Virus record (IMG/VR): IMGVR_UViG_3300019886_000004
Span: 64,001 to 128,000 of that record
Length of the DNA: 64,000 nt
Source: a virus
Reading direction: 5' to 3' (one strand)
Part shown: one piece after another, positions 3-45,698 of the stretch
How positions within the stretch are numbered: position 1 is the stretch's first letter
Layout: the number at the start of each line of letters is the position of its first letter
Made by a program: the position numbers and the translations under genes
Notes under the pieces: generated by a model
The model's input: the letters and a program-made list of their open reading frames with translations, nothing else
The model's database searches: none
What the model was told of the DNA's origin: nothing

Positions 3-3000
3 AGACTTGGTAAAGTACAGACTAAAAGCGTTGAAGATTTAGCTAAGGAACAAGATGAATTAGATAAGGGAAATACAGAAGGTCTTACAGCGTCTGCAGA
101 TGTTAGAGAAAATAGATCATTGATTGGAAATAGAGAAATACTTGAAGCCAATAGAATGTTTGGTGCTGAAATAATAGTTAGAGTTGATGAAATAGCTAAC
201 TCTGATGCGCGAGCTTTATGGACTACATCTGGTATTAAATTATATCGTGACGCACGCAAAGGCGATGGTTATCACGAAGCATGGCATCATTTTTCTCAGC
301 TTTATTTAACTTTACCTGAGAAAAGATCACTCTATGATGAAGCAAGAAAGAAAGGTGTAAACTATACAGATCGTTCTGGTCGTAAACTTAATACTAAATC
401 TGTTTCTGATATTGACCTAGAAGAAATGATTGCAGATGATTTCAGAGATTACGTAGAAAGTAATGGTAAATCAAGATTAGTAGATAGACCTTATCGTAAT
501 AACATATTTAGAAAGATACTCGACTTCTTAAAGAGATTCTTTTTCGGAGATGTTAATATTTCTAAACTTTATGATGATCTTTATAAAGGTAATTTAAATA
601 AATATGAACCATCTATCAATAATGCTATGTGGGGTAAATTAACCTCTAAAGCAGTTGATGGACACGGTAATGAAATAGTTGATAATCAGAAAGCAGCTTA
701 CTATAGAGATATAGTAGATTACTTCATGGGAGAACAATTACTAGCTGGTAATACTTCAGTGGAGTCTTTACGAAAGAATAAAAAACTAGCAGAAGCGGTT
801 TATGGTAATATTTATAACGAACTGGTTACAAGATATTATAACCCAATGCTGGATAAATTTGATGCTGGTGAGGAAATCAACCAAACAGTAGCAGAAGAAC
901 TAAATAATATTCTGACTAACTGGGAAGCTTTTGTAGATTATCATAAGAGAGCTTCTAAACTTTTCTTAAACATCCAACATGAGCTTGCTATAGATGTACC
1001 AGAGAATCCAGAGGATGTAAAGTCTGAAACTGACATATCTGAAGGAGATGATGAATTAAAGAATGAAAGCGATGAACAATTTGGAGAGGATGAAGTAGAT
1101 AAAGATGTAATGCAGAGTGATAAGCTTTATGATGTTTCAGGCAATGAACAATCTTCCATTAATGCAGCCTCAATTCAAACAAGAGGTTTAATAAGAATGT
1201 TACCAGCTATAGATTTTGATAATGGTAACTTTACAATTTTATTAGATAATAATGGATTCCCAAGGCTTAATGACTACGCTAGAACTTGGAATAACATAGC
1301 TTATGAATTATCTGATCTTAATTCTTATGATGAAATGATTAATAAGCTTCGTGATCCTAAAACTTTAAAGAAGATACCTGAAGTAAGTGTACTTCTTAAA
1401 CATCTTCCAAATCCAGACAAAGATCACACACCTAGAGAGATAAATACAATAGCTGCTTTTAGAACAGATTTCAATAGAGCTTATATTGGTATATATTCTG
1501 GTAAGATGAATAATAACGGTAATTATTATTTGAACGAAGAAACTAAAAGAAATTTAGACCAAGTAAAAAAGACTTGGACTGCTAACTTTTACAATAAGAC
1601 TTCAGATGATCCAGATGTAGCTGGAGAAAGGATATTGGTGGATGAGGATAATGGTAAGAACTATTTAAATCCCAGTATAATATTATCCTATAATCCAGGA
1701 GCTATAGCAGGTAAAGAAGCTTTACTAAAATTACTAGGTATTAGTTTTTCTGATGAAGCTAAAAATGATAGATTCTATACTGGACAGTTAAGTCAACTCT
1801 TGGCTGATATACAAACTAATATAAATGAGCGTCATCAAAATGGTCAAAGAATATACAATCCTACATTTGATCTCAGAAGCGATTTAAAGGACAATAAGAC
1901 AGGAGAAGTTATAGTTAGGGGTTTATATGGTGTTCTTGATGGATTGTTTTATTTCCAGTCTAAATACGCCTCAGATGTACCCTCATTATCCTATCAGACA
2001 GCTGAAGGTGAAATGATCTATGGTTTAAGTTTAAATCATACTTTATCTATAGTTTCTAATAAGCTTAACAAAGCAACAAGTTACGATGATATAAAAAATG
2101 ATCCTTCTATGCAACATTTGGATTATACAAATAATCCTTATGTTCTTGGATCAATTTTTCTTAAGAAATTATTCAATTTAAATAAAGGAACTAGATTAAA
2201 AGATAATTATATAATAGTAGGTAACTACAATGGTTTTAAACAGCAGGATGAAGATGGAGATACTGTGGGTTATTCTACTACGAATTTAAATGTACGTCAA
2301 AAAGCTATCTTTGATATTAATTCGCTTTTAACTAAAGGTGTAGTAGAAGTAATGAGAACAGAAAGTTCCAAAAGTGCTTACTTTATAAAACTTCATCATT
2401 ATGAAAAAGATAATGCTGGAGATCCTAGTAAGTCTTATTTACCTATAGGTTTTAGTGAATTACCTGCTGGATTTCAAAGCCCTCGTTTAATGAATTATAT
2501 GATTGATGGTTATTTACATGACGAGTTAAATAGAATGAAAACCGCAGCTAATGTAGATGTTTATAAGAATGATCCTAAACTTATGCAAGCAGCACAAGGT
2601 TTCAATCTATTCAGAGATGTACTTAGGGGAATTTTAGATCAATATGGTAATCTTAGAGCTACTGAAAAGAATGCTGAAAGTTTAAAAGATTCCATAAAAT
2701 CAGATCTTGAAAGACATTCGCCTGATGCAATAATAGAAAAATATAGAGATAGAATCGAACAGGCAATAAATAGGTTTTTTGAGAGCGAATTTAAGTCATT
2801 GAAAGAAGGACTTGAAGAAGAAAACATCACTGGAGATGACATAGCTAAAAACTTACCTAGTAAGTCTTATGATCAGCAGTTACGTACTTTTATAGCTAAT
2901 GATTTTTTACTTAATGTAGAATACACTAAGTTATTTAATGGAGACACGATTTATCAAGCTCATTACAAAGATTATTTTAAAAGATCCAAAGGAGATATAT

Positions 3001-6000
3001 CTACAGGTAAAACTCCAATGACGGATGATCTATTTGCTAGACATATGCGTTCTATTGAGAAAAATACTTTTGGTGCTTTTATTCAATCAACAATACCTAA
3101 TGATTATAAAACATTCAGAACTATTAATTTTAAAGATGACACAAGAGATTCCAAATATATAGAGATATATAGAAAAGACTTACTTGCCGCAGATCCTACG
3201 TTAAAACCTGAAGAAATAGATAAATGGTTAGAAAAATATAAAGGTATGAAAATTGCTGATGGTCAAGGTTATGTAACTTTGGATTTCTATCGCCAATTTT
3301 TAAAATCTATTAATAACTGGTCAGATGCGCAAGAAAAAGGATATCAGGTTGAGCTAGCTAAGTATAGACTCGCTAATAAATCATTTAACACTGACTATAC
3401 AAATGAAATGCAAGAATATGATAGAGAATTCTTAAAAGCTAATCCTCAGAACTTTTCTTATTATCCTCCTCTTAAAATTCAATATAATGGTCCTATAAAA
3501 GCTAAAGGTACAGGAGCAATGGTAATGGATAAGTTTTCTGTTGTGCCCTTAATACCATCCATACTTCAGAACACACCGCTCGAACAAATTCACAATGAAA
3601 TGTTAAAAGCTGGTATTGGTTATGCAAAATATGCATCAGGTACTAAGAAGTATTTACATCCTCCAGTTGAAATTTACAATGAGGACGGATTTCAAGGACT
3701 TGATCTTTCTAAACACGAACCTGCTGTACATTTTTTAGATTATCTTAAAGAACAGATTAATACCAATCCTAAGACTAAATCAGAATCCATATTTGGTTCT
3801 CAAATACGTAAGTTAATTGAAGCCAATATTTTTAGTAACGGTACTGCAGATAAAATAGATTTGGATAGACACGAAAGATATAAAAGTTACATAAAAGGTA
3901 TTATTGATCTAGGTAAAAAAGAGTTATTCAATGAAATAGGACTTTCTGAATCTGAAGGAAGAATAAGAATAGGTGATATGGAAAAGTTTATTTCTACTAT
4001 TCAACAACAAGCTGAACTTAGGGAGCTGAATGATAATATAAAAGATTACATACAATATGATAAAGATACCAAAAAACTTAAATATGCTCTTGAAACTTCT
4101 TTGAATAGAAAACCTATCCAAGACCTTTTAATGGGTATTGTTGACAGAAGGATGAGAGTTCAGAAATTAAGTGGAGATCAACTTATACAGATATCATCTT
4201 CTGGATATCAAGCTAATGACTTTAAATATACTAAAGCAACAGATGAAGAAGTAAAAAAATATGGTACAAACGGTCTTAGATTTTACCACCTTGAATATGA
4301 TGAAAATGGTAAACCTAAAAATATTGTATCATCTCAAGTCAAGGTAGGTTTAAGTACTAATGGATTTGATAAACTTTTAAATAAAAAACATCCAGATGGT
4401 AAAAGGATAAGTACCCTAGAGAGATTAAATGAACTTTTAAGAGATGGCAATTGGCGCAAAGAGAATAAAAAAAGTATAACATTAATAGGTTATCGTATAC
4501 CTACGCAAGGTTTTAATTCTATGGAACATTTGGAAGTATCTGAATTTTTACCTCCTCATGTAGGATCTTCTATAATTGTTCCAGCTGAGATTGTAGCTAA
4601 ATCAGGATCTGACTTTGATATTGATAAAATGTCTATCTTTAGACCATCCTTTGATGAGAATGGTGAGATTATAGACGGAGGATCTAAAGAAGGTTATTCC
4701 AATAAAATTATAAATTTATTCTCAGAAATACTTTCTGATCCTAAAATCTTTAAACAACTAATTAGACCTAATGACACTGATCTAGTTAAACCTGAAACAA
4801 ATGATGTTGCTGTAGCGATAGGTAAAAGAAGTGCCTCTGATATTAAAGATCCTAAGCCTTACTCAGGAACTCAGATTTATAGATATAAAAATAACTTAAG
4901 AAAGTTTGAAACTCTTTTATCCGCTAAGAAACTGTTAAGCATATTTGCTGTTAATAATACATTTAGTACTGTTATGCAGCAGGCTGGTACTACTATGGCT
5001 ACTACTTATGGTCTTGAAAAAGGAGTTAACAGAAATGTTAAGTTATTTTTGATGAGTCCTAAAGAAAGGCAAAAGGTTATCAAAGATAATAGAATTCTCT
5101 TAGGTTCTAAATATTCTGTTGATGGTAATTTCAAGCAAGACTTTTATAGCCAATTAATTAACGCTACAGTTGATGCTGCTTCTGATGACTTCTTTGGTTA
5201 TGTGAATATGTCATATGAGAATGTAAACGTTCTTTGTCATTTAATTAATCAAGGTGTACCATTTGACCGTGCTATATGGTTCTTAAATCAACCAGTCCTC
5301 TTACGTTATTATTCTGACATGCGTAAAAGACAAAGAGGTGTAGGTAAAGACTCTGTTAAGGCAACTATACTAGGTCAACTTACAGGAAAGGATTATTTCT
5401 TTCAGTCAGAGACCACTGGAAGAATGATGCTTGATAGAGCTATATATAATAAGGATATAAACAATATATTAAATAATCCTAAGTACACTAATTTATTCTT
5501 AAGTAAAGATGTACTTAAGAAATATACTGTTAAGAATAAGAATGTTGATGAGTTCTTACAAGATCCTAAGACTAAAACCTATAATGCTATTGTCCTAGCT
5601 TATTTTATAAGTCTTCAAGAGCAAGCTGGATTATTTAGAGATTTACAAAGAGTATCAAGTTACGATACAACTAAAACTTCTAGTCCCACTATTGCTTATA
5701 ATCTATTTGCAGTATCAAAACAAATAGAAGCAAATAAAATGTTTAATGCTGAGGAGGTCAGTAAAATATCAACTAAAAGTATAATAGGAGCTTTTGATAA
5801 TAAAAAATTGGTAGCTACTATCGGTGCGGCTTTGATGCCCGTGGCTTTTAATCCTTATTTTATGTCCAAATCGGTAGCTATAATAAAAAAGAATACTCAA
5901 TATGCTACTAGAACAGCTCAGAAAAAATTCATTAACAATTATGAAACTCAATGGATAGAATACGTAGTTAAAAGCTTAGGTAAAATAGGTGACTATTCTA

Positions 6001-7274
6001 TACCTCAATATACTAGATATCTACAAGAAGGTAAAGGTAGTTTAGCTAGAAGGTTTAATGAGATTATTGGAAAGTATCCAGAACTCAAACAAGACTATGC
6101 GCTGGTTAATAAACTAAGACCAAACTTTCCAAACCAAGTTAATATAAAGAAATCTAATATAGAGGTATACAGGTTATTCGAGAATACCACTGATGATCAG
6201 AATAGATACATATCAGAATTTAGAAATCTAATTAATTTAGATTCTAAAAAATACAATCCACAGCAAACTATAGAAATTCAGAAGTTTTTTAGAGACTTAG
6301 CTATTCTAGGATTCACACAGTCAGGTTTCAATAAAAGTAACATTTCGTTTCAAGATATAATACCTTACGAGCAACTAGCAGATATCTTTAAAACAACTCT
6401 AGATAACTTCAATAAATATATAGCAAAAGATCCAAGTTTATTAGATAGTTACATAAAACAATTTCAGTCCCAATTTTCTAGTAATCAAAAGTCTAATAAG
6501 CAATCATGGAGAGGTAGAGATTACTATCTAACTGATGAAGCAAACAAAGCAATAAGAGCTAAAACAGGTAAACCAGAAGAAGTCAAGAAAGCTCAAATCA
6601 ACGTTCAACCAGAACCAGAAGCTTTTGAAAATATTAAAAAAGTCAAACTAACTGAAACCAATCAACAAGAGCAACTAGCACCACTAGTAAAAACAGAACG
6701 TCAATATTGGCCTGGCGATGAAGTACCTGAAAGCACTAATGAATTAGAAAAAGCTATTGGCAAAGCTCAGTATAAAATGATGATGGATAATTTGAGAGAT
6801 TCAAATAATGATTACTTTTATGATGACTTACCTGATAGCTATACTAAGGAAGATTTTGATAAATACATCGATAATGAAGATTTTATTCTACAAACTAAAA
6901 TAACACCTGAAAACTTTGAAAGGTTTTTACAGGTTTATAATAGATTTGGTGACTCGATAGTTACTGATGATGGTGGAGAATATTCACTGGAATCCTTAAC
7001 TAATAGTCTAAGAAATAAACTAATATTTGATGAAAATGGAAGTAGTGCAATAGAATACCATGATGGAATAAAAAGTATTTTTGAAGAGTATATCAAAGAT
7101 AGAACACCTGATGATATGAAAGATAACGTTGAGAAAATTCTTGGAGATTATGGACTTCTTAAGTTTAGAGACTACAATTCAAATCAACCTAAACTAGAAT
7201 TTCCAAACGAATCTGAAGGTAGATATTATACAGATGAAGAATATAAAGAAAAGTTAAAAAACTGTAAAGGATAA
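3..7274 (+). CDS. Virion-packaged (crAss-like) two-barrel RNA polymerase with zincin-like domain; 5'-truncated by window
   Basis: KSGSDFDIDK catalytic loop, YRIPTQ (RxP) and DGQGY motifs; HEAWHH zincin motif near the N-end. The frame is open from base 3, so the TTG at 120 is probably not the true start. Confidence 0.9.
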   Translation, partial: RLGKVQTKSVEDLAKEQDELDKGNTEGLTASADVRENRSLIGNREILEANRMFGAEIIVRVDEIANSDARALWTTSGIKLYRDARKGDGYHEAWHHFSQLYLTLPEKRSLYDEARKKGVNYTDRSGRKLNTKSVSDIDLEEMIADDFRDYVESNGKSRLVDRPYRNNIFRKILDFLKRFFFGDVNISKLYDDLYKGNLNKYEPSINNAMWGKLTSKAVDGHGNEIVDNQKAAYYRDIVDYFMGEQLLAGNTSVESLRKNKKLAEAVYGNIYNELVTRYYNPMLDKFDAGEEINQTVAEELNNILTNWEAFVDYHKRASKLFLNIQHELAIDVPENPEDVKSETDISEGDDELKNESDEQFGEDEVDKDVMQSDKLYDVSGNEQSSINAASIQTRGLIRMLPAIDFDNGNFTILLDNNGFPRLNDYARTWNNIAYELSDLNSYDEMINKLRDPKTLKKIPEVSVLLKHLPNPDKDHTPREINTIAAFRTDFNRAYIGIYSGKMNNNGNYYLNEETKRNLDQVKKTWTANFYNKTSDDPDVAGERILVDEDNGKNYLNPSIILSYNPGAIAGKEALLKLLGISFSDEAKNDRFYTGQLSQLLADIQTNINERHQNGQRIYNPTFDLRSDLKDNKTGEVIVRGLYGVLDGLFYFQSKYASDVPSLSYQTAEGEMIYGLSLNHTLSIVSNKLNKATSYDDIKNDPSMQHLDYTNNPYVLGSIFLKKLFNLNKGTRLKDNYIIVGNYNGFKQQDEDGDTVGYSTTNLNVRQKAIFDINSLLTKGVVEVMRTESSKSAYFIKLHHYEKDNAGDPSKSYLPIGFSELPAGFQSPRLMNYMIDGYLHDELNRMKTAANVDVYKNDPKLMQAAQGFNLFRDVLRGILDQYGNLRATEKNAESLKDSIKSDLERHSPDAIIEKYRDRIEQAINRFFESEFKSLKEGLEEENITGDDIAKNLPSKSYDQQLRTFIANDFLLNVEYTKLFNGDTIYQAHYKDYFKRSKGDISTGKTPMTDDLFARHMRSIEKNTFGAFIQSTIPNDYKTFRTINFKDDTRDSKYIEIYRKDLLAADPTLKPEEIDKWLEKYKGMKIADGQGYVTLDFYRQFLKSINNWSDAQEKGYQVELAKYRLANKSFNTDYTNEMQEYDREFLKANPQNFSYYPPLKIQYNGPIKAKGTGAMVMDKFSVVPLIPSILQNTPLEQIHNEMLKAGIGYAKYASGTKKYLHPPVEIYNEDGFQGLDLSKHEPAVHFLDYLKEQINTNPKTKSESIFGSQIRKLIEANIFSNGTADKIDLDRHERYKSYIKGIIDLGKKELFNEIGLSESEGRIRIGDMEKFISTIQQQAELRELNDNIKDYIQYDKDTKKLKYALETSLNRKPIQDLLMGIVDRRMRVQKLSGDQLIQISSSGYQANDFKYTKATDEEVKKYGTNGLRFYHLEYDENGKPKNIVSSQVKVGLSTNGFDKLLNKKHPDGKRISTLERLNELLRDGNWRKENKKSITLIGYRIPTQGFNSMEHLEVSEFLPPHVGSSIIVPAEIVAKSGSDFDIDKMSIFRPSFDENGEIIDGGSKEGYSNKIINLFSEILSDPKIFKQLIRPNDTDLVKPETNDVAVAIGKRSASDIKDPKPYSGTQIYRYKNNLRKFETLLSAKKLLSIFAVNNTFSTVMQQAGTTMATTYGLEKGVNRNVKLFLMSPKERQKVIKDNRILLGSKYSVDGNFKQDFYSQLINATVDAASDDFFGYVNMSYENVNVLCHLINQGVPFDRAIWFLNQPVLLRYYSDMRKRQRGVGKDSVKATILGQLTGKDYFFQSETTGRMMLDRAIYNKDINNILNNPKYTNLFLSKDVLKKYTVKNKNVDEFLQDPKTKTYNAIVLAYFISLQEQAGLFRDLQRVSSYDTTKTSSPTIAYNLFAVSKQIEANKMFNAEEVSKISTKSIIGAFDNKKLVATIGAALMPVAFNPYFMSKSVAIIKKNTQYATRTAQKKFINNYETQWIEYVVKSLGKIGDYSIPQYTRYLQEGKGSLARRFNEIIGKYPELKQDYALVNKLRPNFPNQVNIKKSNIEVYRLFENTTDDQNRYISEFRNLINLDSKKYNPQQTIEIQKFFRDLAILGFTQSGFNKSNISFQDIIPYEQLADIFKTTLDNFNKYIAKDPSLLDSYIKQFQSQFSSNQKSNKQSWRGRDYYLTDEANKAIRAKTGKPEEVKKAQINVQPEPEAFENIKKVKLTETNQQEQLAPLVKTERQYWPGDEVPESTNELEKAIGKAQYKMMMDNLRDSNNDYFYDDLPDSYTKEDFDKYIDNEDFILQTKITPENFERFLQVYNRFGDSIVTDDGGEYSLESLTNSLRNKLIFDENGSSAIEYHDGIKSIFEEYIKDRTPDDMKDNVEKILGDYGLLKFRDYNSNQPKLEFPNESEGRYYTDEEYKEKLKNCKG

Positions 7275-7278
7275 ACCA

Positions 7279-10200
7279 ATGAATCAATGTCCGAATTTTT
7301 CCGATCCGAAATATAAGTATCTAGAAAATAAACTAGGTGAGCTTGAAGCTTACAAATACTGGCATCAACATGGTGGTGATATTTCTCACGTGTTAACTAA
7401 TCAAGATAGATTAAAGTTAATTGATAGATCTAAAGAATTAGTTAAATATGTACAAGGTGTTTATAGTCACGCAGCTAAAGAAAATCCTGAACTATTTCTA
7501 AAGGAAATAGCAGATCAACTGACAAGTTCTAAAAATGAAGCAACTACAGCCAGAAAAATAGCTGGAAACGAGCTTTCAAATATTGCTTTACAACTAAGAG
7601 CTTCAGAAAATCTTACTCCTAAATCAATTAATGTTACTATGAAAATAATAGGAGCATTAAAACAAGATAAGTCTAATCCTTCAATAGTAGGACCATTGCA
7701 AGCTAAAGGTTTAGTGGGTAAAAGAGTAGCTCCTTTAACATTTGAGATACCAGTTGATCCAACCAACTTCAATTTAATGGATCAGCAAATAAAAGCTACC
7801 AAGGTTGCTCAGCAAATTAATAAACAAGCTGGTAAGGAAGTAGTAACTACAAAAGTAGTTAATGGTAATGCTGCAATATTAGTTGACCCCAATATAAAGA
7901 GTATAATAGATAAACTTGATCCTTCAGATTTTACAACTTACAAGCAATATCTAGTTGACAATCTTTACACGAGTAAAGACAATCCAGCCACAACAGATTT
8001 AATAAATAATGCCGCTAAATTATCCAGAGAGTTAGGTAGAGACGATCTAGTTAACGTGGCAAGACTAATTTATAAATATTTAGATAAAAATCCTACTCTC
8101 AAAACTAGAATGGTAGATGATATATTTGAGGAGACTGGAGAAACTGGTATAAAAGCTTACTATAACAAAGGTACAAATAGTATAACTTTTGGTAGATCTA
8201 CAATGGGACAGAGTACACTTGAGTACGAATCTGAAACAGTTCTTCACGAAATACTTCATGGTTTAACTTTTCAGCCGTGGTTTAAATCTAAAGTAGATGT
8301 ACCTTTATCTCAAGAAGAAAAAGATTTTAAACATGTTGTAGAAACTTATTATAGTTATTTCAAGGGTAAAAAAGGAGCTGAAGGTTATGCTTTCACTAAT
8401 CCTGAAGAATTCTTAATGGGTGCACTATTTGATAAACCCTTCCAAGATCATTTAAAAGAGCTTGGTGGAGATACTGTTAAGGGATCTCCTTTTGTACAAT
8501 TTCTAAAAGATATACTTAAAAGATTCTTAGCTTTATTCGGAATTAAATCCAAAGACGAAATAGTAGATAAATTAGACCCTGAGAAAATCCAATCTTCTAT
8601 GATTGAAGCTTTGTCTGATTATTTAGGTAAGATGAAGAAGATTGATTTATTTAACGGACTAAAAGAAGAAGGTAGAAATTATGGTCTTAGTTTTGCTATA
8701 ACAGCGCAACAGGATTACTTGAGTGAATCTGAAAGACTTAAAGCTGAACGAGAAGAAAGAGAAAAGATGAAAGCTTCTCTTGGTGATAATCTTAGAGAAC
8801 AATTAAAAAAGAGTATTGATAAATCTATACTTTCCATAAAATCATTCGGATCTAACATTCGAAAAAGAATACCAGAAAGTCAAGAAGGTTTTAAAGCTAT
8901 TTTTAAGCAATTAAAAAAACTCGAAGATCCGGCTTATAATTTAGACCAAATAGACTTCTTCTTTGATTTTACATCTGAGATACAAGCCATTATGAATGTG
9001 GCTCATGAAAAAATTAGAAAGTTACAGTCCGATACCACTATAAATGATCCCGACGTTAAACTAAAAGAGTACGAAGATATAGTATCTGCGGCTAGAAACT
9101 TTGATCCTATTTTAAATGAGATTCAGAATATAAAGATTCAACTGGAGAGTCTAGGATATAAAGCATCGTTAGTTGATCTAGATGATATAACATTAAAAAG
9201 AGACAGGATAGAATCTATCTATAGTATGGGTGTATTTCCATTAGTAACAGATAAGTTTGTGGATATTTTATCTCCTTCATCTAAACAAGCAGTAGAAATG
9301 TCTACTACTAGAATTGATGAACTAGATAAAAGAATAGCACTTGCTAATAAAAATAACAATAAATCACGTGTTTTACAACTAGAAAGAGAGAAGAAAACCG
9401 AACAGTCTAAGATAGATAAAGAATTTACACTTAGTTCAGATAAAGTTAGAGATTGGTTAAGAGGTCAAATGGGTGACTCTAATATCTTACAGGTTTGGTT
9501 AATGGCTGGCGTGTCAAATTCTAATCCTTTAGTATCTGGCTTATCTAAGTATATTAGAGATAATGTTGGAGAGGCTGCACCTGCAGTACTTGAGCTTATG
9601 AACACTATGCAATCCAAATTAGAGGATTATGAGTCTAAAACAAATAGGTCAAGAAATAATATACTAGAATTTAATACACCTTTAATTCAAACTCATAAAA
9701 TTATCAATGGTAAGGATGAGAAAGGTGAATATACCTATGAGGATAAACGCTCTCTTTTACATGAATTTAATGGTGGACATATTCAAGAACTTCAGAAGTT
9801 TAAAAGACAGTTGACAGACCTTTATGCATCCAAAAGAGAAATAGAGAGTACTGCTAATCCAAATGAAGAAAATCTAAAGTTTCTTACTGATAGAATTAAA
9901 GAAACTAAAGATAAACAAAGACAGTTTATAAGAGATTACATGGAGCAACAGTATACTACTGAAGTACATGAAGCTTTAGACATGCTCCACGAGGATTTAG
10001 GAGGCTATACAGCCTGGGATTATATGGGACCAGTACTATCTAGAATAGAAGATACAGAGCTTGCCATTGACCAGGAGAATGATCCTGCTAGGTTAGCTGA
10101 TTTATATAATCAGTTAGATGGACATAATATAGAGTTCTCTCGTCTTGGTTCTTTATATGAAAAATCACCTGATAGTAGAGAGTTGAAAGTAGCTGAACAA

Positions 10201-13200
10201 ATAAAAAAAAGAAGAGAACTTTTAGGTAAATATAGTCAATATGTTCTAACAGACAAAGGTAAAGTTCAATTTGATACTCAGTGGGCAAGAATGAAAAGAA
10301 AATTGTCTAAAAATGAAATAACTCCTGAGAAATATGAACGTTGGTTGGAGGATAATACTGTAACCGAAAATACTCCAGCTTTCTGGGATGCAAAAAATGC
10401 AATCTTAAAGGATCTTAATGACCTGTATTTAGAAATGGGTGTTGAGAATAAGAAGGATGAAAATATTGGTAAACTCTACAAAGGTATGGAAGATATTACC
10501 AAGGCACATAGAGATTCTAATGGTATAATAAATGGATCAGAAATGCCTGATAAAGAATTAAAAGATGTTAAAAGTTTAGAAGAACAAATTGAAAAAGCTA
10601 AAGATGATTTAGCTAACATATTCGGTTTGACAAGACTTGAAAGAGTAAATATATCTAATCTAAAGAATCAAATTGATGAGATTGGATCTATGATGTATTT
10701 CGAACAAGATCCAGATAAAAGACAGAATCTAGTAAATTTAAAGGCTGATATTGAAGATCAAGTTGATGAAATAGAATCTAAGAAGAAAAATATTAATAAG
10801 AAACTATTGGATAAATATTTTCTTCTAATGAAAAAACTAGGTGAATTAGAAGAAGGTAATGTTACCAAGTATTATTTAGATGAATCACAAGAGAGATTAG
10901 AGCAAGAAACAGCTAAAGTAGATACTTCTAAAATGCCAGTTAAAATGATTATGAATGGTAGAACCTATCAAAAATCAGGTAATGAATGGTTGGAAATATC
11001 TGGAGGTAAAATAGAGAAGAGAGATATAGCTTTCGTAGAAAATATATTTAAAGAAAAAAAAGGAAATGTAAACTATCTTAACTCTGACTGGTATAAAACC
11101 AATCATGTAAAAAAGATGAAGTTTGTTAGAAATGCGGAATACATACCTGGACAGTATGATGTAGCTGCTGGAGATTGGCAAGAAGTAGAAGAACCTACGT
11201 ATGCATGGAAGCAAACAAGACCAAGGGATTCAAACTACATAAACGAAAATCAACCATCTTTTAAATATAAAACCAGGCAAATTAAAGACCAATATATAAA
11301 CAAGAATTATAGAGAAGATATTAATGGAGACTTGAGACCTAAAGTGAAAGGAGTTAAAGATGATAGATTTCTTAATAAGGATTATCAAAGACTTATTAAC
11401 TCTAATAGTTCTCAGGATACTGCCACAGCTAATATGTTAAAATATTTAACAGATACTTATTATAAAGCTCAAGAAGGTATTCCAAAAGGTCTTAGACCAG
11501 GATATGAATTACCTGGAATAAGAAGAACAGATACAGAAAGATTGATAGGTCAAAGTTTGAAGAAATCTAGTCAAGAAATGTTTGAATATCTTGGTCAGAT
11601 AGCTAGAAGTATTAAAGATAAAGCTGTAATTAATGAGCAAGATAAAGATATTTTATTTGGATACAATGATGACTTTAATGGAATAGTTCCAATTAAATTT
11701 CTAGGGGATATTGATTCTAAGGATCAAAGTATAGATTTACCCAAATCTATTTTAACCTTTGCATCTGAAATGTTAAAACGTGAGCAATTAGTTAAAAGTT
11801 TACCTTTTGCAAATGCAGTTAAAGATATTGCAAATAATTCAGATTATAGACCTGTTAAAACTAAGAAAGGTATAGTTGAATCTGTTAAGAGGAAATTTCT
11901 ACCAAAGAATACAGAAGTAGCTAAAAGGTCAGATACAAGTAATACTGCTTTGCAAATTAATGAAATAATAAAATCAGAAATATACGGGGAACAGATGAAA
12001 GATCAACCAGCTGCTAAATTAGTGAATAGTTCACTTAGATTAGGAGCGGGAGCAATGCTTGGTTTAAATTTTGTATCTTCTGTACAGAACTATGCTAATG
12101 CATTTACTCAATCTATCATTGAGACAGAGAGTAAAAATAAGAACTTTGATATGAAAGGTTTCTTTAAGGCTCAAAAGATTTATTATGCTCATGTGGATGA
12201 ACTTATGAGTGATCTAGGTAAGTACGGTAATAAATCTTATATTAACCAATTCTTTGATTACTTTGGTGGTATTAATTATAAAATATTTGGTAAAAATCAT
12301 AAGACATTGGCTCATAGCAAAGTAGGAGAATTTACCAAATCTTTATCGGTGCCTAATACTATAACTGAACATATGCTTAATTATCATATGGGTATAGCTA
12401 TAGCTTTGAAATATAGAGTATCTGATGGTAAAGGTAATATGGTGCCAATATTTGACGCGTTTACTAAAAAAGATGGTAAGCTAGTTCAAAAAGAAGGGTT
12501 TAATATAACAGAGGAAGAAAGAAAAGAACTTATAGCTAGACTTAATAGCTCTGCTAGAAGAATCAATGGTGAATATGGAGATAAAATATTAGCAGATAAA
12601 TATGTTTTAGGAAAACTTGTTTCATTCATGAATAGATATCTAGTGCCGTTTGTAGTAAAAAGGTATGGTGCTAGAAAATTTGATATTCAAGATGGTCAAC
12701 GTGATGAAGGCTATTGGAGATTATTTGGTAAAATTTTAATACAAGATATTAGAACTAAATCTGTTCCAATACTTGGACAATGGAAATATTATACAGCAGA
12801 AGAAAAACAAGCCATAATTAAATCAATGACTGAGCTTGGGTTTACTATCATGTTTGCTTTAATGATTCATGCTTTAGGAGGAGATGACAACAAACAAATT
12901 AAAGATAATAGTATTCTCACTAATAACCTAATATATGCATTAAAAGGTATACAACAGCAAAACGAGGCTTTTATGCCTGTGCCAGGTATAGGTTTTGATG
13001 ATCTTTTTAGAAAGATACAAAATCCTTTTCCAATACTTGGTAAAGTAAAAAATCTTGTTTCTTTAATTCAGGATGGCTCTCATACAGCTTGGTATGAAAT
13101 GGGATTGCCAGGAGTGGATGAAAAGGATGTGAAATATATGCAAAAGACGGGATGGCATAAGCCAGGAGATTTCAAAATGTTTGCAGATTTTCAAAAATTA

Positions 13201-13281
13201 ATAGGAGTACAGAAACTAGTAAATTACTTCTATCCAGATGAGGCATTAAAAGCACAAGAATCAATGTCAAGAATAAAATAA
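7279..13281 (+). CDS. Large (2000 aa) virion cargo/ejection protein with zincin-like metallopeptidase motif
   Basis: VLHEILHGLT...EEF motif, long helical/coiled-coil regions, hydrophobic C-terminal segment; lies directly after the vRNAP as in crAss-like phages. Confidence 0.7.
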   Translation: MNQCPNFSDPKYKYLENKLGELEAYKYWHQHGGDISHVLTNQDRLKLIDRSKELVKYVQGVYSHAAKENPELFLKEIADQLTSSKNEATTARKIAGNELSNIALQLRASENLTPKSINVTMKIIGALKQDKSNPSIVGPLQAKGLVGKRVAPLTFEIPVDPTNFNLMDQQIKATKVAQQINKQAGKEVVTTKVVNGNAAILVDPNIKSIIDKLDPSDFTTYKQYLVDNLYTSKDNPATTDLINNAAKLSRELGRDDLVNVARLIYKYLDKNPTLKTRMVDDIFEETGETGIKAYYNKGTNSITFGRSTMGQSTLEYESETVLHEILHGLTFQPWFKSKVDVPLSQEEKDFKHVVETYYSYFKGKKGAEGYAFTNPEEFLMGALFDKPFQDHLKELGGDTVKGSPFVQFLKDILKRFLALFGIKSKDEIVDKLDPEKIQSSMIEALSDYLGKMKKIDLFNGLKEEGRNYGLSFAITAQQDYLSESERLKAEREEREKMKASLGDNLREQLKKSIDKSILSIKSFGSNIRKRIPESQEGFKAIFKQLKKLEDPAYNLDQIDFFFDFTSEIQAIMNVAHEKIRKLQSDTTINDPDVKLKEYEDIVSAARNFDPILNEIQNIKIQLESLGYKASLVDLDDITLKRDRIESIYSMGVFPLVTDKFVDILSPSSKQAVEMSTTRIDELDKRIALANKNNNKSRVLQLEREKKTEQSKIDKEFTLSSDKVRDWLRGQMGDSNILQVWLMAGVSNSNPLVSGLSKYIRDNVGEAAPAVLELMNTMQSKLEDYESKTNRSRNNILEFNTPLIQTHKIINGKDEKGEYTYEDKRSLLHEFNGGHIQELQKFKRQLTDLYASKREIESTANPNEENLKFLTDRIKETKDKQRQFIRDYMEQQYTTEVHEALDMLHEDLGGYTAWDYMGPVLSRIEDTELAIDQENDPARLADLYNQLDGHNIEFSRLGSLYEKSPDSRELKVAEQIKKRRELLGKYSQYVLTDKGKVQFDTQWARMKRKLSKNEITPEKYERWLEDNTVTENTPAFWDAKNAILKDLNDLYLEMGVENKKDENIGKLYKGMEDITKAHRDSNGIINGSEMPDKELKDVKSLEEQIEKAKDDLANIFGLTRLERVNISNLKNQIDEIGSMMYFEQDPDKRQNLVNLKADIEDQVDEIESKKKNINKKLLDKYFLLMKKLGELEEGNVTKYYLDESQERLEQETAKVDTSKMPVKMIMNGRTYQKSGNEWLEISGGKIEKRDIAFVENIFKEKKGNVNYLNSDWYKTNHVKKMKFVRNAEYIPGQYDVAAGDWQEVEEPTYAWKQTRPRDSNYINENQPSFKYKTRQIKDQYINKNYREDINGDLRPKVKGVKDDRFLNKDYQRLINSNSSQDTATANMLKYLTDTYYKAQEGIPKGLRPGYELPGIRRTDTERLIGQSLKKSSQEMFEYLGQIARSIKDKAVINEQDKDILFGYNDDFNGIVPIKFLGDIDSKDQSIDLPKSILTFASEMLKREQLVKSLPFANAVKDIANNSDYRPVKTKKGIVESVKRKFLPKNTEVAKRSDTSNTALQINEIIKSEIYGEQMKDQPAAKLVNSSLRLGAGAMLGLNFVSSVQNYANAFTQSIIETESKNKNFDMKGFFKAQKIYYAHVDELMSDLGKYGNKSYINQFFDYFGGINYKIFGKNHKTLAHSKVGEFTKSLSVPNTITEHMLNYHMGIAIALKYRVSDGKGNMVPIFDAFTKKDGKLVQKEGFNITEEERKELIARLNSSARRINGEYGDKILADKYVLGKLVSFMNRYLVPFVVKRYGARKFDIQDGQRDEGYWRLFGKILIQDIRTKSVPILGQWKYYTAEEKQAIIKSMTELGFTIMFALMIHALGGDDNKQIKDNSILTNNLIYALKGIQQQNEAFMPVPGIGFDDLFRKIQNPFPILGKVKNLVSLIQDGSHTAWYEMGLPGVDEKDVKYMQKTGWHKPGDFKMFADFQKLIGVQKLVNYFYPDEALKAQESMSRIK

Positions 13282-14143: not shown

Positions 14144-15125
14144 TTAAAACATTGACAACTGTGTATAATCTTCATTAGAAATTTCTGGTTGAATTTCAGA
14201 AATTATTTCATATGTCTTTTTAACGTAAAAATCATAGTTTATGTCATAGTCTTCTATTTTCTTTTCAACATGTTTATTGTATATAGTAGCTTTCCATTTA
14301 CCTGCATCTTCTTGTATTTGCCTACCATCCGGATTACATTTTACAAGCTTAACACCATCGTTTGATATAAAATATCTATTTGTTTTCTGGAGTTTCTCTT
14401 TAATGATGTAGTTGTCCTTAAAGTAGATGGAATTCAAATACCAATCTCCTTTTGTTCTCATCCCAGCACAAAAATCCATAATATTAGTATGATTAGCTAT
14501 AAACAATCTTGGATTTATACCTTTAACATAAAATTCATTGAGAGCTAAGGCTATAATCCTGTAACTTTTATTTTTATGTAGCTCATGGTTTATAGTAAAA
14601 CTCGCTCCTTTGTGTTTAGGTTTTCCATCTGTTTTAACTGCAACATAATCATTTACAGATCTTTGTGCTAGTAATGAATAATCAGCATATTCTAATTTAC
14701 CTTTATCATTATTACCAACTAAGGTTTCCCAGTCTTTACATATTTTCTTATATAATTCTTCTTGGTTTTTATCGAACAAAGATACTATACCATCAGTATT
14801 AGCAGATATTACGTTAATACCCCCCAAAACTAAACGTTCAATTAACATAATAAGATCTATCTGACTTCCTATAGTCACGTCAAAACATGTTTTTGGAGAA
14901 AACTGCCAATTTGTTTTATCCTGTAACTTTCCAAAAAGACCTCCATTTGCTGCTAATTTATAAGCTTCATCTACTGATTTATACTTACCTTCTTTAGTTT
15001 GCTTATACATATCCTTAGCAATGTCTCTATCACCTATTAATTTGTCAACTATACCTAACCATTCTATACCAAGGTGCTCCGGGTAAAGTTTTCTTTTTCT
15101 AATTGCATTGGGATACATACCACCT
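14144..15125 (-). CDS. polB: DNA polymerase family B, exon 2 (polymerase domain)
   Basis: GGMYP (end of motif A), YKLAANGGLFGK (motif B), SANTDGI (motif C); joins exon 1 in frame to give a 652-aa protein. Confidence 0.9.
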
Positions 15126-15824
15126 CTAACTAACATCAAGACTTTCATCTTGAACTGGACTATATTTTAATTTTAAAAATTTCCTCCAAACGAAACCGTA
15201 CATGCTTGGTTTTTCTCCAGAACATACTGCATATATGTTGTGGCGCTTGTAAGTTGGATTATCATCAAGTATACTTTTCATTGTATTCCAAATCTTAATT
15301 AATTTACCTTCTTTTGTTTTTTGATGTATTTCATAAATAGTTCTAGATTGTGAAACTTTGTTTGCCATTTCTTCTTTTGCTTCTGGATTTTCTCGGTAGA
15401 ATTTAGAACAATTACCACCAATATATCCCCTTGTTTTTCTTAATTTATAAGCATTAGATAATTTCTTTCTTGTTTCATCACTAACTATTAAACCTGTTTT
15501 GGAATCTTCTCTTTTATTATATCCACATTTACTATTTAAAGAATTGAATTGTTTAATCCAATAAATTTCTTTTTCTGATATTAATTTTTCATCTAATTCT
15601 AAATATTCCAAAACAAAATAATCAAAATTCTCTCTTCCGTACTTAAGCCATGCATTTATAAAATGATCATTTTCACTGTCTCTTTTTTTATTATTGAGAT
15701 TTGTTATGTGATTTTTGATCCTTCTATGAATACATTTTGCTTTTCCAATGTAAACTTTATTATTAATTAAATTCCTAATACAATAAATACCTGATTTTTC
15801 TTTATCTTTTATATTTGCTTTCAT
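15126..15824 (-). CDS. Intron-encoded GIY-YIG homing endonuclease with C-terminal NUMOD1/IENR1-like DNA-binding domain
   Basis: SGIYCIRNLINNKVYIGKA; C-terminal EIHQKTKEGKLIKIW...YGFVWR; ATG at 15824 preferred over TTG at 15839. Confidence 0.9.
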   Translation of the reverse strand: MKANIKDKEKSGIYCIRNLINNKVYIGKAKCIHRRIKNHITNLNNKKRDSENDHFINAWLKYGRENFDYFVLEYLELDEKLISEKEIYWIKQFNSLNSKCGYNKREDSKTGLIVSDETRKKLSNAYKLRKTRGYIGGNCSKFYRENPEAKEEMANKVSQSRTIYEIHQKTKEGKLIKIWNTMKSILDDNPTYKRHNIYAVCSGEKPSMYGFVWRKFLKLKYSPVQDESLDVS

Positions 15825-17070: not shown

Positions 17071-17102
17071 TAAAGTTACGAATAATTATCTATATTTCCA
17101 AA
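17071..17102 (-). promoter_or_regulatory. Bacteroidetes sigma70-type promoter for polB
   Basis: TTTG-N20-TAACTTTA (consensus TTTG...TAnnTTTG). Confidence 0.6.
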
Positions 17103-17303
17103 TTAATTCTCAATACTGTTCAAAATTACTTCTCTTAATTGTCTTTCCAGTGCTTGCTGCTTGCATTGTAATTCAAAAATCTCTCCAGCATGTTCAGAAG
17201 AGTTGTGTCCATAATATAACATATTTAATGCATCTTTTACTTCACGTATTTCAAAATTAAGAGTAAATACTATTAGTTCACCACTTTCCTTTGCTTCTAT
17301 CAT
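17103..17303 (-). CDS. Hypothetical protein
   Basis: 66-aa ORF overlapping the MazG-like gene stop. Confidence 0.55.
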   Translation of the reverse strand: MIEAKESGELIVFTLNFEIREVKDALNMLYYGHNSSEHAGEIFELQCKQQALERQLREVILNSIEN

Positions 17304-17629
17304 ATGTTATATTTATATTTACCTTCATTTAAGTATCCTATAAATTTATTGGCTTTATAAACTTTTCTTACATTGATCTCCCAAACACTTATTTTAAATC
17401 TCTCCATCAACATTTCCAGTCTAATATATACATCACCTATTTCTTCTATTAAATGGTCTTTAGTAGGTTTATGAGGATCTATTTTATTCATCATCTTAAG
17501 TAGAACCTCCTGCAATTCAGTAAGTTCTTCGCAAGTTTTAGCTAATAGAAACTTTTCATTATTATTTTTTGCAAGATATCTAAACAACCTACTTGCTCCA
17601 TTGGTATTAGCTACTTTATTTTTATACAT
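17300..17629 (-). CDS. MazG-like nucleotide pyrophosphohydrolase
   Basis: EELTEL...EEIGDV (ExxE / ExxD) all-alpha NTP-PPase motif. Confidence 0.75.
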   Translation of the reverse strand: MYKNKVANTNGASRLFRYLAKNNNEKFLLAKTCEELTELQEVLLKMMNKIDPHKPTKDHLIEEIGDVYIRLEMLMERFKISVWEINVRKVYKANKFIGYLNEGKYKYNI

Positions 17630-17641
17630 TATATTCCAATT

Positions 17642-17672
17642 AAAAAAGCCAGAGTTTTTAATCCTGGCTTTT
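17642..17672 (-). terminator. Intrinsic terminator
   Basis: AAAAGCCAG...CTGGCTTTT hairpin with A/T tracts. Confidence 0.65.
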
Positions 17673-17678
17673 ATTTTT

Positions 17679-18053
17679 TTAAACTGTTTTTAAGTTTGCA
17701 ACTGATTGATCTTCTTCAACCTGTTCTGAAAGCTCCCATTCTTGACCATCATAGTTAGATACATAGTTATCAAGAATAAACTGAACTGCAGATTTATCAG
17801 AGATTGTAACCCTGTAATACTGTTCTGCTCGACCTTGACTTATAGTCACTTTTCCAGTTTTGCTGGCTTTAGGCATATCAACAAAATTCTCCTTTACTGA
17901 ATTAAACTGACAAACTAACATCTGTTCAAGAGGATTCCAAGCAGCATGCATAATAGGAGAATCTCCAAATGCTAATAGATCCCAAGAATCAACTTCTTTT
18001 CCAATCTTTTCAATTCTTACTTTGTTCTTTACAAAAACTAATGGTTTTGACAT
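17679..18053 (-). CDS. Hypothetical protein with own promoter and terminator
   Basis: 124-aa ORF between a promoter (18070-18101) and a terminator. Confidence 0.7.
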   Translation of the reverse strand: MSKPLVFVKNKVRIEKIGKEVDSWDLLAFGDSPIMHAAWNPLEQMLVCQFNSVKENFVDMPKASKTGKVTISQGRAEQYYRVTISDKSAVQFILDNYVSNYDGQEWELSEQVEEDQSVANLKTV

Positions 18054-18069
18054 AAATATATATTTTATG

Positions 18070-18101
18070 CAAAGTTACAACTAATTTCTGTAATTTCCAA
18101 A
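18070..18101 (-). promoter_or_regulatory. Bacteroidetes sigma70-type promoter
   Basis: TTTG-N20-TAACTTTG, matches consensus. Confidence 0.75.
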
Positions 18102-20276: not shown

Positions 20277-20308
20277 CAAATGTACGGAAATAAATCCATA
20301 TAAACAAA
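20277..20308 (-). promoter_or_regulatory. Bacteroidetes sigma70-type promoter for nrdJ
   Basis: TTTG-N20-TACATTTG. Confidence 0.75.
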
Positions 20309-20386: not shown

Positions 20387-20812
20387 TTATCCAGTAGAAC
20401 CAAATGCAGATGCTGCGCGATCGGTGTCTTCCAGTTTTTGAACTTCTTCAAATTCTACTTTCGGTATTGGTATTACTATTAGTTGAGCAACTCTATCTCC
20501 TACTGTATAAGCCTTACTGTTTCTTATATATTTAAAACGAGCTTTAATTTCTCCTCGATATCCTGAATCCACTACTCCAACAGCATTACTCAAAATCATA
20601 CCTGTATTTGAAATCGAAGACCTAGGAAATATTAATCCAACGTGATTTTCTGGTATTTCCAAGGAAATTCCAAAACCATATTCATAGTATCCAAAATCTT
20701 TATTATCAACGACTATCATCGAAGTTGATGTGAGATCCATACCACCATCTCCTTGCTTCTGATACTCTGGAATTTTGGCCGAATCAACCAATTTCTTTAT
20801 TTTTATCTTCAT
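20387..20812 (-). CDS. dut: Trimeric dUTPase
   Basis: GMDL, PRSS, GVVDSGYRGE, RVAQL, FGSTG motifs. Confidence 0.95.
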   Translation of the reverse strand: MKIKIKKLVDSAKIPEYQKQGDGGMDLTSTSMIVVDNKDFGYYEYGFGISLEIPENHVGLIFPRSSISNTGMILSNAVGVVDSGYRGEIKARFKYIRNSKAYTVGDRVAQLIVIPIPKVEFEEVQKLEDTDRAASAFGSTG

Positions 20813-21476
20813 AGTTTTCGTATATTAGTTTTATGAAGTCTAAGAATTTTCCTCTATCAAAATTGAACTTTATAGTATTGACAGCATGGCAACAAAGAAC
20901 TATATTTGATTTTATGTATCCGATTCTATTATCAACTCTGTCAACACTCACATGTGTTAATTTTGGTTCATTATCAATTGTCATAGGTATATTTGTATAT
21001 TTACATATACCTTTTTGTTCTTTCCATAATTCTATTAAATCAGAAATCTCAATATCAAAATGTATATTTCTTTTTTTCGACATTGATCTCATCCTCTGAA
21101 ATTTCATGGCAAAGAATTTTTCGTCTTTACTATATTTAAATCTTGGATTTTTGCTGTTGTACTCGAATTTACATCCATTACAACAACAAGATGGTCTACC
21201 AAGTTGATCTAAATAAACGTGTCTTTTTTGATAAAAGTCCTTGTTGCAGTTTGCACAATGAACCAAAACTTGTGTATTTTTTCCAACATTGAGAAATTTA
21301 GGTGCACAGTATTTACAGTAACCTGTACCTCTTTTTAAGAAGGTGATACCGTACACCCTCATTTCTTTATTACAATCCAGATTTCTACATTTACAAATAT
21401 AAATCTTTGTTGTCTCAATACACTTCTTAGTTTGCTTTTTTCTAATTTCTATTCTTATAACTTGTGATACTTCCAT
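20784..21476 (-). CDS. Free-standing His-Me (HNH-like) homing endonuclease with N-terminal Cys-rich zinc fingers
   Basis: CKYT...SVDRVDNRIGYIKSNIVLCCHAVN; multiple CxxC; overlaps the dut start. Confidence 0.75.
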   Translation of the reverse strand: MEVSQVIRIEIRKKQTKKCIETTKIYICKCRNLDCNKEMRVYGITFLKRGTGYCKYCAPKFLNVGKNTQVLVHCANCNKDFYQKRHVYLDQLGRPSCCCNGCKFEYNSKNPRFKYSKDEKFFAMKFQRMRSMSKKRNIHFDIEISDLIELWKEQKGICKYTNIPMTIDNEPKLTHVSVDRVDNRIGYIKSNIVLCCHAVNTIKFNFDRGKFLDFIKLIYENYEDKNKEIG

Positions 21477-23974: not shown

Positions 23975-24006
23975 CAAATATACGCATTTTTCATGAAATT
24001 ACCAAA
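23975..24006 (-). promoter_or_regulatory. Bacteroidetes sigma70-type promoter
   Basis: TTTG-N20-TATATTTG. Confidence 0.75.
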
Positions 24007-39494: not shown

Positions 39495-39544
39495 CCTTTT
39501 TTATTACAAAGCTACGAATAAAAAATGACATAACCAAATATTTT

Positions 39545-44384: not shown

Positions 44385-44921
44385 TTATAAGTTTATTACT
44401 GATAAGTAAACTCTATTGTTCGTTCTTTTATTAATTACATTATATATGTCTTTCCATCCGTTTGTAGCTAGAAGTTTGCGCTGGTGTTCATTCTTATCCA
44501 CATCTGTGCATAAAAGTAAAGAATACCCAAGTGCCCTTCCAATGTCCTGTCTTAGTGTATTTAAAGTAGTGGCTATTCTTTTATTCCTAAATTCTGTATC
44601 TACAAATGACTTACAAGAAACAAGTATGGCACAACAATGTGGCATTCTATAAAGTTCAAATGAAGAAACAAACCTATCCCTACAGCAAAGTATGTAATTA
44701 CCTTCAGACCAATCATTTAACTCTTGTTTTTTATTCTCATCAAAAATAGGTATAATTCCGGTAATCTTCTTTTCAAATTTACATAATCTCTCATAAAGAC
44801 CAGTAGTAATGTGTGTACTATAAGGAATTTTTGTTATGAAGAAAGATATATCTTCTGGTTTTACATTTAGTAACCCGGCAATTAATTTACAATATTTATC
44901 TAATATTTCTTTTGTTTTCAT
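44385..44921 (-). CDS. 'CC'-motif GNAT-family protein (paralog 4)
   Basis: MPHCCAILV, VDTEFRNKRIAT (motif A), LLATNGW, INKRTNN. Confidence 0.65.
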   Translation of the reverse strand: MKTKEILDKYCKLIAGLLNVKPEDISFFITKIPYSTHITTGLYERLCKFEKKITGIIPIFDENKKQELNDWSEGNYILCCRDRFVSSFELYRMPHCCAILVSCKSFVDTEFRNKRIATTLNTLRQDIGRALGYSLLLCTDVDKNEHQRKLLATNGWKDIYNVINKRTNNRVYLSVINL

Positions 44922-44930
44922 GAAAATAAA

Positions 44931-44962
44931 TTTGTTTATATTAAAAATTAGTTGTATCTTTG
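44931..44962 (+). promoter_or_regulatory. Bacteroidetes sigma70-type promoter facing a non-coding region
   Basis: TTTG-N20-TATCTTTG. Confidence 0.75.
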
Positions 44963-44965
44963 TTT

Positions 44966-45365
44966 ATGGTTTTTAATATGTTTCTATCCAGTTGCTTTTA
45001 GTTTGGCAATAAATAAAAAGATAAGATTAAGATAGACAGCCACCTGATTAGACGAAACTTGGTCGGGATGGAGTAATTCAAAGGTAGGGTAATACCAGTG
45101 TTAGCAACGTCTGCACAGCTTGACGACTAATGACCTCAGATCAAACTTAAAAATTTGACTTTACCTTCATCGTTAGGTCTAACAACCTATATCTTTAAGA
45201 TGGATGCGATGAGTTTACTTAATCAGTTACAGAAAAAACTAATTTACTTAATTCTGTAACAATATAAACTTCTTTAGCTACTATTTTTTCTACGGTGGTA
45301 GCTATTCTGAGGGATGTAGAAGCTGTACTATGTTAGCTACCCAAAAGGTAGCTTTCATAGTTTTT
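44966..45365 (+). ncRNA. Candidate large structured ncRNA (~400 nt), family unknown
   Basis: No ORF in the track; promoter upstream; terminator hairpin + T-tract at 45328-45365; many helices, including G-U pairs and loop-to-distal pairings. Confidence 0.6.
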
Positions 45366-45438
45366 ACGAATTACCTAAAAGTTTTTTTATACTTAGTTAA
45401 TTCCATATCAGTGTTCTCCATACTTATTGATGAAGTTT

Positions 45439-45657
45439 CTATTGCTTCATTATTATTGTACCTTTAAATAATCTAGTTGTCTTTTTACTCCAAGTTTCTA
45501 TCTTAGAAAGCCCAAAATTAAAGACGTGATGTGACTCATTATATTTAATAGGATTGGTGGTAACATGTCCAATTCTAGCATTATCAATTACTAAAGATCC
45601 TGATTCTATAAACTCCTGATTTTGTTCTTCTAGTTCTATTTTAAGTACTGGTTTCAT
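45439..45657 (-). CDS. Hypothetical protein
   Basis: 72-aa ORF. Confidence 0.5.
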   Translation of the reverse strand: MKPVLKIELEEQNQEFIESGSLVIDNARIGHVTTNPIKYNESHHVFNFGLSKIETWSKKTTRLFKGTIIMKQ

Positions 45658-45666
45658 AAAGATTTA

Positions 45667-45698
45667 TTTGTTTATTTGAGTTAATTTTTGTATATTAA
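45667..45698 (+). promoter_or_regulatory. Variant-class promoter
   Basis: TTTG-N20-TATATTAA. Confidence 0.5.

Follow-up and report, generated by a model that had tools for sequence, protein, structure and literature searches.

What is encoded in the 517 nt (positions 44922-45438) that separate two minus-strand genes of a crAss-like phage genome, one for a 178-aa GNAT-like protein (44385-44921) and one for a 72-aa protein (45439-45657)? The stretch of DNA analyzed here, which we call the window, comprises 64,000 nt (G000:C1:64001-128000) of a 147.9-kb IMG/VR virus record with approximately 30% G+C, whose replicative helicase has its nearest counterparts (33-38% identity) in Bacteroides, Flavobacterium and Cellulophaga phages of the crAss-like group. 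The original prediction was that the gap holds an unannotated plus-strand noncoding RNA of about 400 nt with several pseudoknots and with its own promoter and terminator. This core reading is upheld by conserved transcription signals, by covariation and by the lack of a match to any known family. We consider it very likely that the locus is a real and new structured RNA gene. The best explanation overall, and on balance a probable one, is that it is a free-standing gene for an RNA of approximately 395 nt, belonging to an uncatalogued family and acting in trans.

Transcription signals in the gap

The largest ORFs that reach into the gap are 34-46 aa long, and no ORF appears when TAG is read as Q or TGA as W. 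The region is thus ORF-free, as had been claimed, in the sense that no ORF exceeds 46 aa in any of the three genetic codes tried.

The promoter that was expected to fire into this region is present on the plus strand at 44931-44962, directly next to the start codon (ATG) of the minus-strand gene 44385-44921, and is predicted to be strong. It consists of a -33 element, TTTG (44931-44934), and a -7 element, TATCTTTG (44955-44962), in perfect agreement with the pattern TTTG-N-TAnnTTTG, and we take this TTTG / TATCTTTG pair to be the -33/-7 consensus of the Bacteroidota. A promoter of the TTGACA/TATAAT kind was considered and rejected, as a sigma-70 scan yields only a weak 9/12 site. The Bacteroidota-type motif heads every homologue of the RNA. 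Approximately 10 sites of the class TTTG-N15-21-[TC]GTAnnTTTG occur genome-wide, several of them immediately upstream of genes, and we therefore conclude that the RNA uses a regular promoter of the phage. Near-identical promoters precede gene clusters at 17071-18101, 20277-20308, 23975-24006 and 39507-39538 on the minus strand of the window and at 45667-45698 on the plus strand. The promoter class suggests that part of the crAss-like genome is read by host RNA polymerase.

The predicted terminator is found at 45328-45365 as the interrupted hairpin CTATG/AGCTACC...GGTAGCT/CATAG followed by TTTTT; a scan tool missed it because the stem is interrupted. Three relatives (L208, L125 and L210) carry terminators at the same place, built from GC hairpins of unrelated sequence followed by a U run. 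With its 5' end set by the promoter and its 3' end by the terminator, the predicted transcript spans 44968-45365 on the plus strand (~395 nt). It is contained entirely in the gap and does not overlap an opposite-strand gene as a cis-antisense RNA would.

Relatives and fold of the RNA

Direct searches contributed only one relative. Among 50,697 phage records, nothing similar to the RNA (517 bases, blastn) or to its 10-kb surroundings (megablast) was detected, and protein-anchored scans of IMG/VR and JGI metagenomes returned one related contig only (represented by L002, L017 and L120). Searches with DNA patterns were likewise negative: TATATCTTNAAGATGG...TGAGGGAT, with a narrow gap allowed between the halves, yielded no relatives; a short pattern gave about 117 matches, all due to chance; GACCTCAAG...CTTGAGGGAT gave 6 viral and 69 genome matches, all chance as judged by nhmmer and near the approximately 130 expected by a hand estimate for genome contigs; and CTTGACRACYANYGACNTNAGA gave a single chance match inside a gene. 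Other relatives were reached via homologues of the neighboring glycosyltransferase, which are numerous in the Logan assemblies, by fetching their contigs.

Seven homologues were found in all: six on contigs of related uncultivated crAss-like phages (L208, L125/L126, L210, L131, L129 and L002; nhmmer E values from 1e-34 to 1e-86) and one in the same genome. The shape of the RNA is thus kept in related phages from soil. The copy in the same genome is diverged and lies on the plus strand outside the window, at G000:C1 ~14,903-15,400 (L211:4404-4900). A BLAST search for a repeat or DGR-like second copy found none; a genome-wide profile search found this one with E=1.9e-16. Together with the window RNA, the homologues form a family of eight members, here called type A, of which seven were aligned and the eighth, the second copy, was read by eye. 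Identity among the aligned members is 49-74%. One subgroup (the window RNA, L208, L125 and L210) has a short 5' end and a terminator; in the other (the second copy, L131, L129 and L002), three of the four carry a structured 5' extension of about 100 nt. In the second copy, which has its own promoter, this extension comprises a helix and an H-type pseudoknot ending in a U run.

The folding energy of the plus strand is far below that of shuffles (z=-4.4, with none of 100 equally good), compared to z=-2.8 for the minus strand, and homologues give values of z=-4.5 and -3.9. Covariation was assessed on a sequence-only MAFFT alignment of the seven members for 53 proposed pairs in nine helices, two of them crossing. 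Standard pairs occupy 92.4% of cells (329/356), compared to 36-49% after a shift of the 3' strands by 1-3 columns. Both sides have changed in 34 of the 53 pairs, a count that, like the other covariation counts, partly reflects shared descent because all eight type-A members belong to one phage clade. In none of 500 shuffles was the pairing, the count of pairs changed on both sides or the covariation score as high as observed. The covariation thus favors the original prediction, and its statement that the G-U pairs (28 cells) work on the plus strand is also upheld: the plus strand pairs better than the opposite strand (329 versus 308 of 356 cells), in agreement with the promoter and terminator. 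We consider it extremely improbable that the locus is a chance-structured AT-rich spacer or an unrecognized small protein gene. At 30% G+C, the genome is of a kind in which inverted repeats occur frequently, but the covariation is far above that of the controls, no ORF is conserved and the indels are not multiples of three.

In the fold that we propose, a 5' domain (P0-P2) is followed by a three-way junction of P3, P4 and P5. P0 (44981-85/45015-19) encloses the hairpin P1 (44992-96/45005-09); these are helices 1 (94% paired, 2 pairs compensatory) and 2 (91% paired, 4 pairs compensatory) of the test. P2 is a local, G-U-rich hairpin, CCA-CCUGAUUAG / UUGGUCGGG-A-UGG (45040-45071). It covaries (helices 3 and 4 of the test) in place of a long-range helix that had been predicted between CTGATTAG at 45044 and TTAATCAG at 45219, and that we discard: an equivalent exists in one of six homologues (L002), and none in the closest relative, L208. 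The stretch GGAGUAAUUCA (45071-45081; AUAGAAAGUCA in L125 and L210) is unpaired and conserved, as are ACCAGU, GA and GGAU, all at core junctions.

For P3, the pseudoknot PK, the P9 loop and the long-range helix, where the MAFFT alignment loses register, a window-based duplex search was used. P3 (45081-90/45158-67), proposed earlier as AAGGTAGGGT/ACTTTACCTT, is borne out by covariation. It closes the junction, inside which lie P4, P5 and the 5' strand of P6, and six of the seven aligned members form it as 6-10 bp with differing letters; in L125, where the alignment cut the segment short, 8 bp were read by eye. P4 (45100-04/45127-31 and 45108-11/45122-25), the predicted TTAG..CGTC/GACG.CTAA helix, is 97% and 100% paired in its two parts (helices 5 and 6) and likewise covaries. 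P5 (45141-45158) is a variable hairpin with a GAAA tetraloop in L131, L129 and L002.

Three peripheral hairpins follow. P7 (45167-45212) is a domain in which UCAUCG/CGAUGA surrounds two small hairpins, one of them AUCUU-U-AAGAU; the outer helix was part of the prediction and gains one compensatory change in L208 (UCAUUG/CAAUGA). P8 (45226-45260), predicted as GTTACAGAA/TTCTGTAAC, is the hairpin GUUACAGAA/UUCUGUAAC, whose loop contains a UUAA that never varies, and the hairpin is confirmed by covariation (helix 9; 98% paired, with 6 of 9 pairs compensatory). At P9 (45275-45304), the expected TAGCTACTAT/GTGGTAGCTA hairpin exists, but it varies among members.

Of the three predicted crossing pairings, the two that define the core, P6 and PK, are strongly supported. 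P6 joins CCUCAGA (45134-45140), just 3' of P4, to UCUGAGG (45306-45312) and crosses P3. As predicted, this helix holds in all sequences: it is 100% paired in the seven aligned members (helix 8), with 4 of 7 pairs compensatory. Its versions, compared by eye, include CCUCAGA/UCUGAGG, CGUGAGA/UCUCACG, CCUGAGA/UCUCAGG and CCUCAAG/CUUGAGG, with CCUGCAAG/CUUGCAGG in the second copy. Downstream of the 3' strand of P6, the tail continues through the conserved GGAU to AAGCUGU (45320-45326), which forms PK with the P4 loop (45115-45121). The predicted complementarity of this loop is kept with differing letters (6-8 bp) in five of the seven members, in the versions ACAGCUU/AAGCUGU, ACGACUU/AAGUCGU, UGGGACUU/AAGUCCCA, GCCAACUU/AAGUUGGC and UUUCGC/GCGAAG; PK is only 4 bp long in L131 and is absent in L129, and by eye it is 5 bp long in the second copy. 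P3 and P4 are each crossed by P6 as well as by PK, which makes the core a double pseudoknot of nested form, and in our model it clamps the three peripheral hairpins P7-P9. A third predicted crossing, between the P9 loop UUCUAC (45288-45293) and GUAGAA (45316-45321), forms 8 bp in the window RNA, L208 and L125, where one compensatory change is seen (UUCUAU/AUAGAA), but not in the other members. Two further contacts are possible, one between a 5' UUAA and the UUAA of the P8 loop and another between the P2 loop UUAGAC and GUCUAA.

Comparison with known RNA families

At the gathering score, Rfam 15 gave no match in the window or in nine related loci, and at E<=10 only chance-level matches to unrelated small families. 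The families covered include tmRNA, RNase P, group I and group II introns, ROOL, GOLLD, HEARO, OLE, raiA and 6S, and ARAGORN detected neither tRNA nor tmRNA in the window or in L211. The initial impression that tRNA, tmRNA, RNase P and intron signatures are missing is therefore supported by these searches, and the novelty of the RNA, for which a comparison with Rfam that included ROOL, GOLLD and tmRNA was the proposed check, stands.

Several known RNAs nevertheless offer useful comparisons. ROOL and GOLLD (RF03087 and RF01998), ornate RNAs of phages and prophages, are of unknown function and form homo-oligomeric cages. Like the RNA described here, they are large, multi-helix, pseudoknotted products of stand-alone phage genes that encode no protein. 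However, they are longer (~580 and ~800 nt, compared to ~395 nt) and differ in host phylum and phage group. They also often adjoin a tRNA, whereas the RNA here has no adjacent tRNA and no covariance-model match; the genome has only two tRNAs, both distant from the RNA gene. Bacterial RNase P RNA is of similar size and also has long-range pseudoknots, and the unpaired AUAGAAAGUCA of L125 and L210 recalls what we take to be its CR-I element, GAGGAAAGUCC; however, the RNase P models give no match at E<=10, and no P4-type partner for the AUAGAAAGUCA stretch was found. HEARO, or omega RNA, sits directly upstream of a nuclease of the IscB/IsrB/TnpB type, in contrast to the window, where no ORF follows the RNA and HEARO gives no match. 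The small HNH and DUF559 ORFs of sister phages follow RNAs of other types, not type A.

Variable cassettes and possible roles

In close relatives of the phage, differing cargo lies behind the same promoter, which in every case directly adjoins the start codon of a minus-strand gene, and the site of the cassette also varies: it lies before the GNAT-like gene, before the glycosyltransferase gene or before other small genes. An RNA of approximately 380 nt, type B, occurs on the minus strand at L121:4830-5222, L128:4355-4740 and L206:2985-3355 (also in L207); it folds into many helices, is ~84% identical in the closest pair compared (L121 and L128), and is followed in L128 by a 113-aa DUF559-like ORF. 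Type C, an RNA of approximately 300 nt, occurs with the same promoter on the minus strand at L123:4960-5960, L127:3990-4955 and L130:4140-4950 and is followed by an HNH ORF in L123 and L127 and by a DUF559 ORF in L130. The only sequence common to types B and C is a 3' motif, CCTGAACCTRCCAAAGTGGT. The ORF of type C appears to be inserted into the RNA, since this motif comes after the ORF in L123 and L130 and also ends type B. One further phage has DUF559 and RNase H ORFs on the RNA strand. Rfam has no match for type A, type B or type C.

Judged from sequence, the locus is a swap-prone accessory cassette. It resembles the 'morons' of phages, which are likewise independent transcription units between conserved backbone genes with cargo that varies among close relatives: it has its own promoter, its own terminator and a variable presence (loci L002, L121-L131 and L206-L210). 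Morons, however, carry protein genes, whereas the cargo here is a structured RNA. The RNA would thus be an exchangeable accessory cassette in a clade of approximately 150-kb crAss-like phages of Bacteroidota. Free-standing genes for homing-type endonucleases (HNH_3/NUMOD4 and GIY-YIG) crowd this region in sister phages, at L123:2218-3012, L127:1972-2847, L131:2316-2849 and L210:3318-3956. In L130, a tRNA gene (6041-6112, plus strand) lies right after the glycosyltransferase gene, where other phages have a small ORF.

One interpretation of these associations is that the RNA is a ribozyme or mobile RNA with a group I-like architecture, a selfish cassette that travels with homing-type nucleases and of which the window copy is ORF-less. 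The central pseudoknot has the same strand order as a group I intron core, P3(5')-hairpin-P6(5')-(P5)-P3(3')-hairpins-P6(3'), which is the topology of group I P3-P7, although the individual helices may not be equivalent. In sister phages, the RNA strand of the cassette also encodes HNH, DUF559 and RNase H-like proteins, the type C ORF lies between the RNA body and the conserved 3' motif, and HNH_3/NUMOD4 and GIY-YIG genes abound nearby. There is also a parallel in the group I-derived lariat-capping ribozyme, which precedes a homing endonuclease gene. However, group I introns interrupt host genes, whereas no plus-strand ORF, exon or tRNA surrounds 44922-45438 and the RNA has its own promoter and terminator. 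Neither Intron_gpI nor group II models match even at E<=10, a G-binding site and splice sites are not recognizable, and the second copy is not a thyX intron. We consider this interpretation unlikely. The same low likelihood applies, in our estimate, to the broader speculation that type A and the two RNA bodies that replace it constitute a novel class of phage RNAs, either catalytic or self-assembling, that are swapped as promoter-bearing cassettes together with homing-type nucleases; if true, the element would be a mobile RNA that is independent of any host gene and has a double-pseudoknot core resembling that of group I.

Alternatively, the RNA could be a structured 5' leader that controls or stabilizes the mRNA of a downstream nuclease, with the ORF lost from the window copy. 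The type-A RNA of L129 lacks a terminator and continues directly into an RNase H-like ORF, so that in this member, at least, a cis-acting leader would fit, and at other loci DUF559, HNH or RNase H ORFs come after the RNA body. However, no ORF lies behind the RNA in seven of the eight type-A members, and four members have gained terminators of unrelated sequence while retaining the full fold. We consider the leader reading distinctly improbable.

A different kind of cis action is suggested by orientation. In the window, the RNA gene runs antisense to the minus-strand genes on either side of it, which share one orientation, and we found neither a promoter nor a terminator on the minus strand of the gap. 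Convergent transcription, or a duplex with read-through transcripts of the minus-strand early operon, could then silence the 72-aa gene or separate it from the GNAT-like and glycosyltransferase genes. However, such a device would leave the selection for an elaborate pseudoknotted fold unexplained, the RNA ends before the neighboring ORF, and the second copy is co-oriented with the genes downstream of it, a thyX-like gene and two genes for methyltransferases. A cis-acting device of this kind thus has, in our view, little chance of being correct, somewhat less than a leader. The ThyX-like protein (294 aa; L211:5228-6112, plus strand; G000:C1:15727-16611) has an N-terminus much shorter than usual, with a Pfam Thy1 match that begins only at profile position 52-60, and its C-terminal ~120 aa are unmatched. 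The second copy was considered as an intron of the thyX-like gene and rejected, as the Thy1 match has neither an upstream exon nor an internal stop.

We therefore return to the reading as a free-standing gene for a trans-acting RNA. Action in trans is suggested because the fold has been selected even without a downstream ORF, because two paralogues are kept in the genome, one antisense to and one co-oriented with its neighbors, and because a search for antisense targets found no complementarity of more than 13 nt between the RNA and the rest of the genome. The RNA would not work by antisense pairing but would act through its compact fold, as a scaffold that binds protein or RNA, as a decoy or as a ribozyme. 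Of these, we propose a trans-acting scaffold or decoy only tentatively. Equally tentative is the idea that it takes part in conflicts with the host or between phages, a guess from the company of nucleases and the variable cassettes among small early genes; in sister phages, the same promoter at equivalent sites also drives two unrelated structured RNAs and small nuclease genes, which points in this direction.

Few large RNAs have several covarying pseudoknots, and past examples have been ribozymes, riboswitch-like sensors and, recently, RNA-only cages. The RNA described here is compact (~400 nt), has clear conservation at its junctions and occurs twice in one crAss-like genome, making it a tractable target for structure determination. 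Its position in a hotspot of swapped structured RNAs and nucleases could point to a layer of crAss-like phage biology that is based on RNA and as yet unexplored. Even if it is a lineage-restricted accessory RNA and nothing further, it adds a new family and corrects the annotation of these genomes.

Two other features of the window were observed. A promoter-like site of the same class lies at 20962-20995 on the plus strand, antisense inside the minus-strand gene 20784-21476, and may mark another antisense transcript. In addition, giant ORFs of 2384 and 2000 aa occupy 120-13281 on the plus strand; proteins of such size are known in crAss-like phages, and the 2384-aa ORF has no PHROG match.
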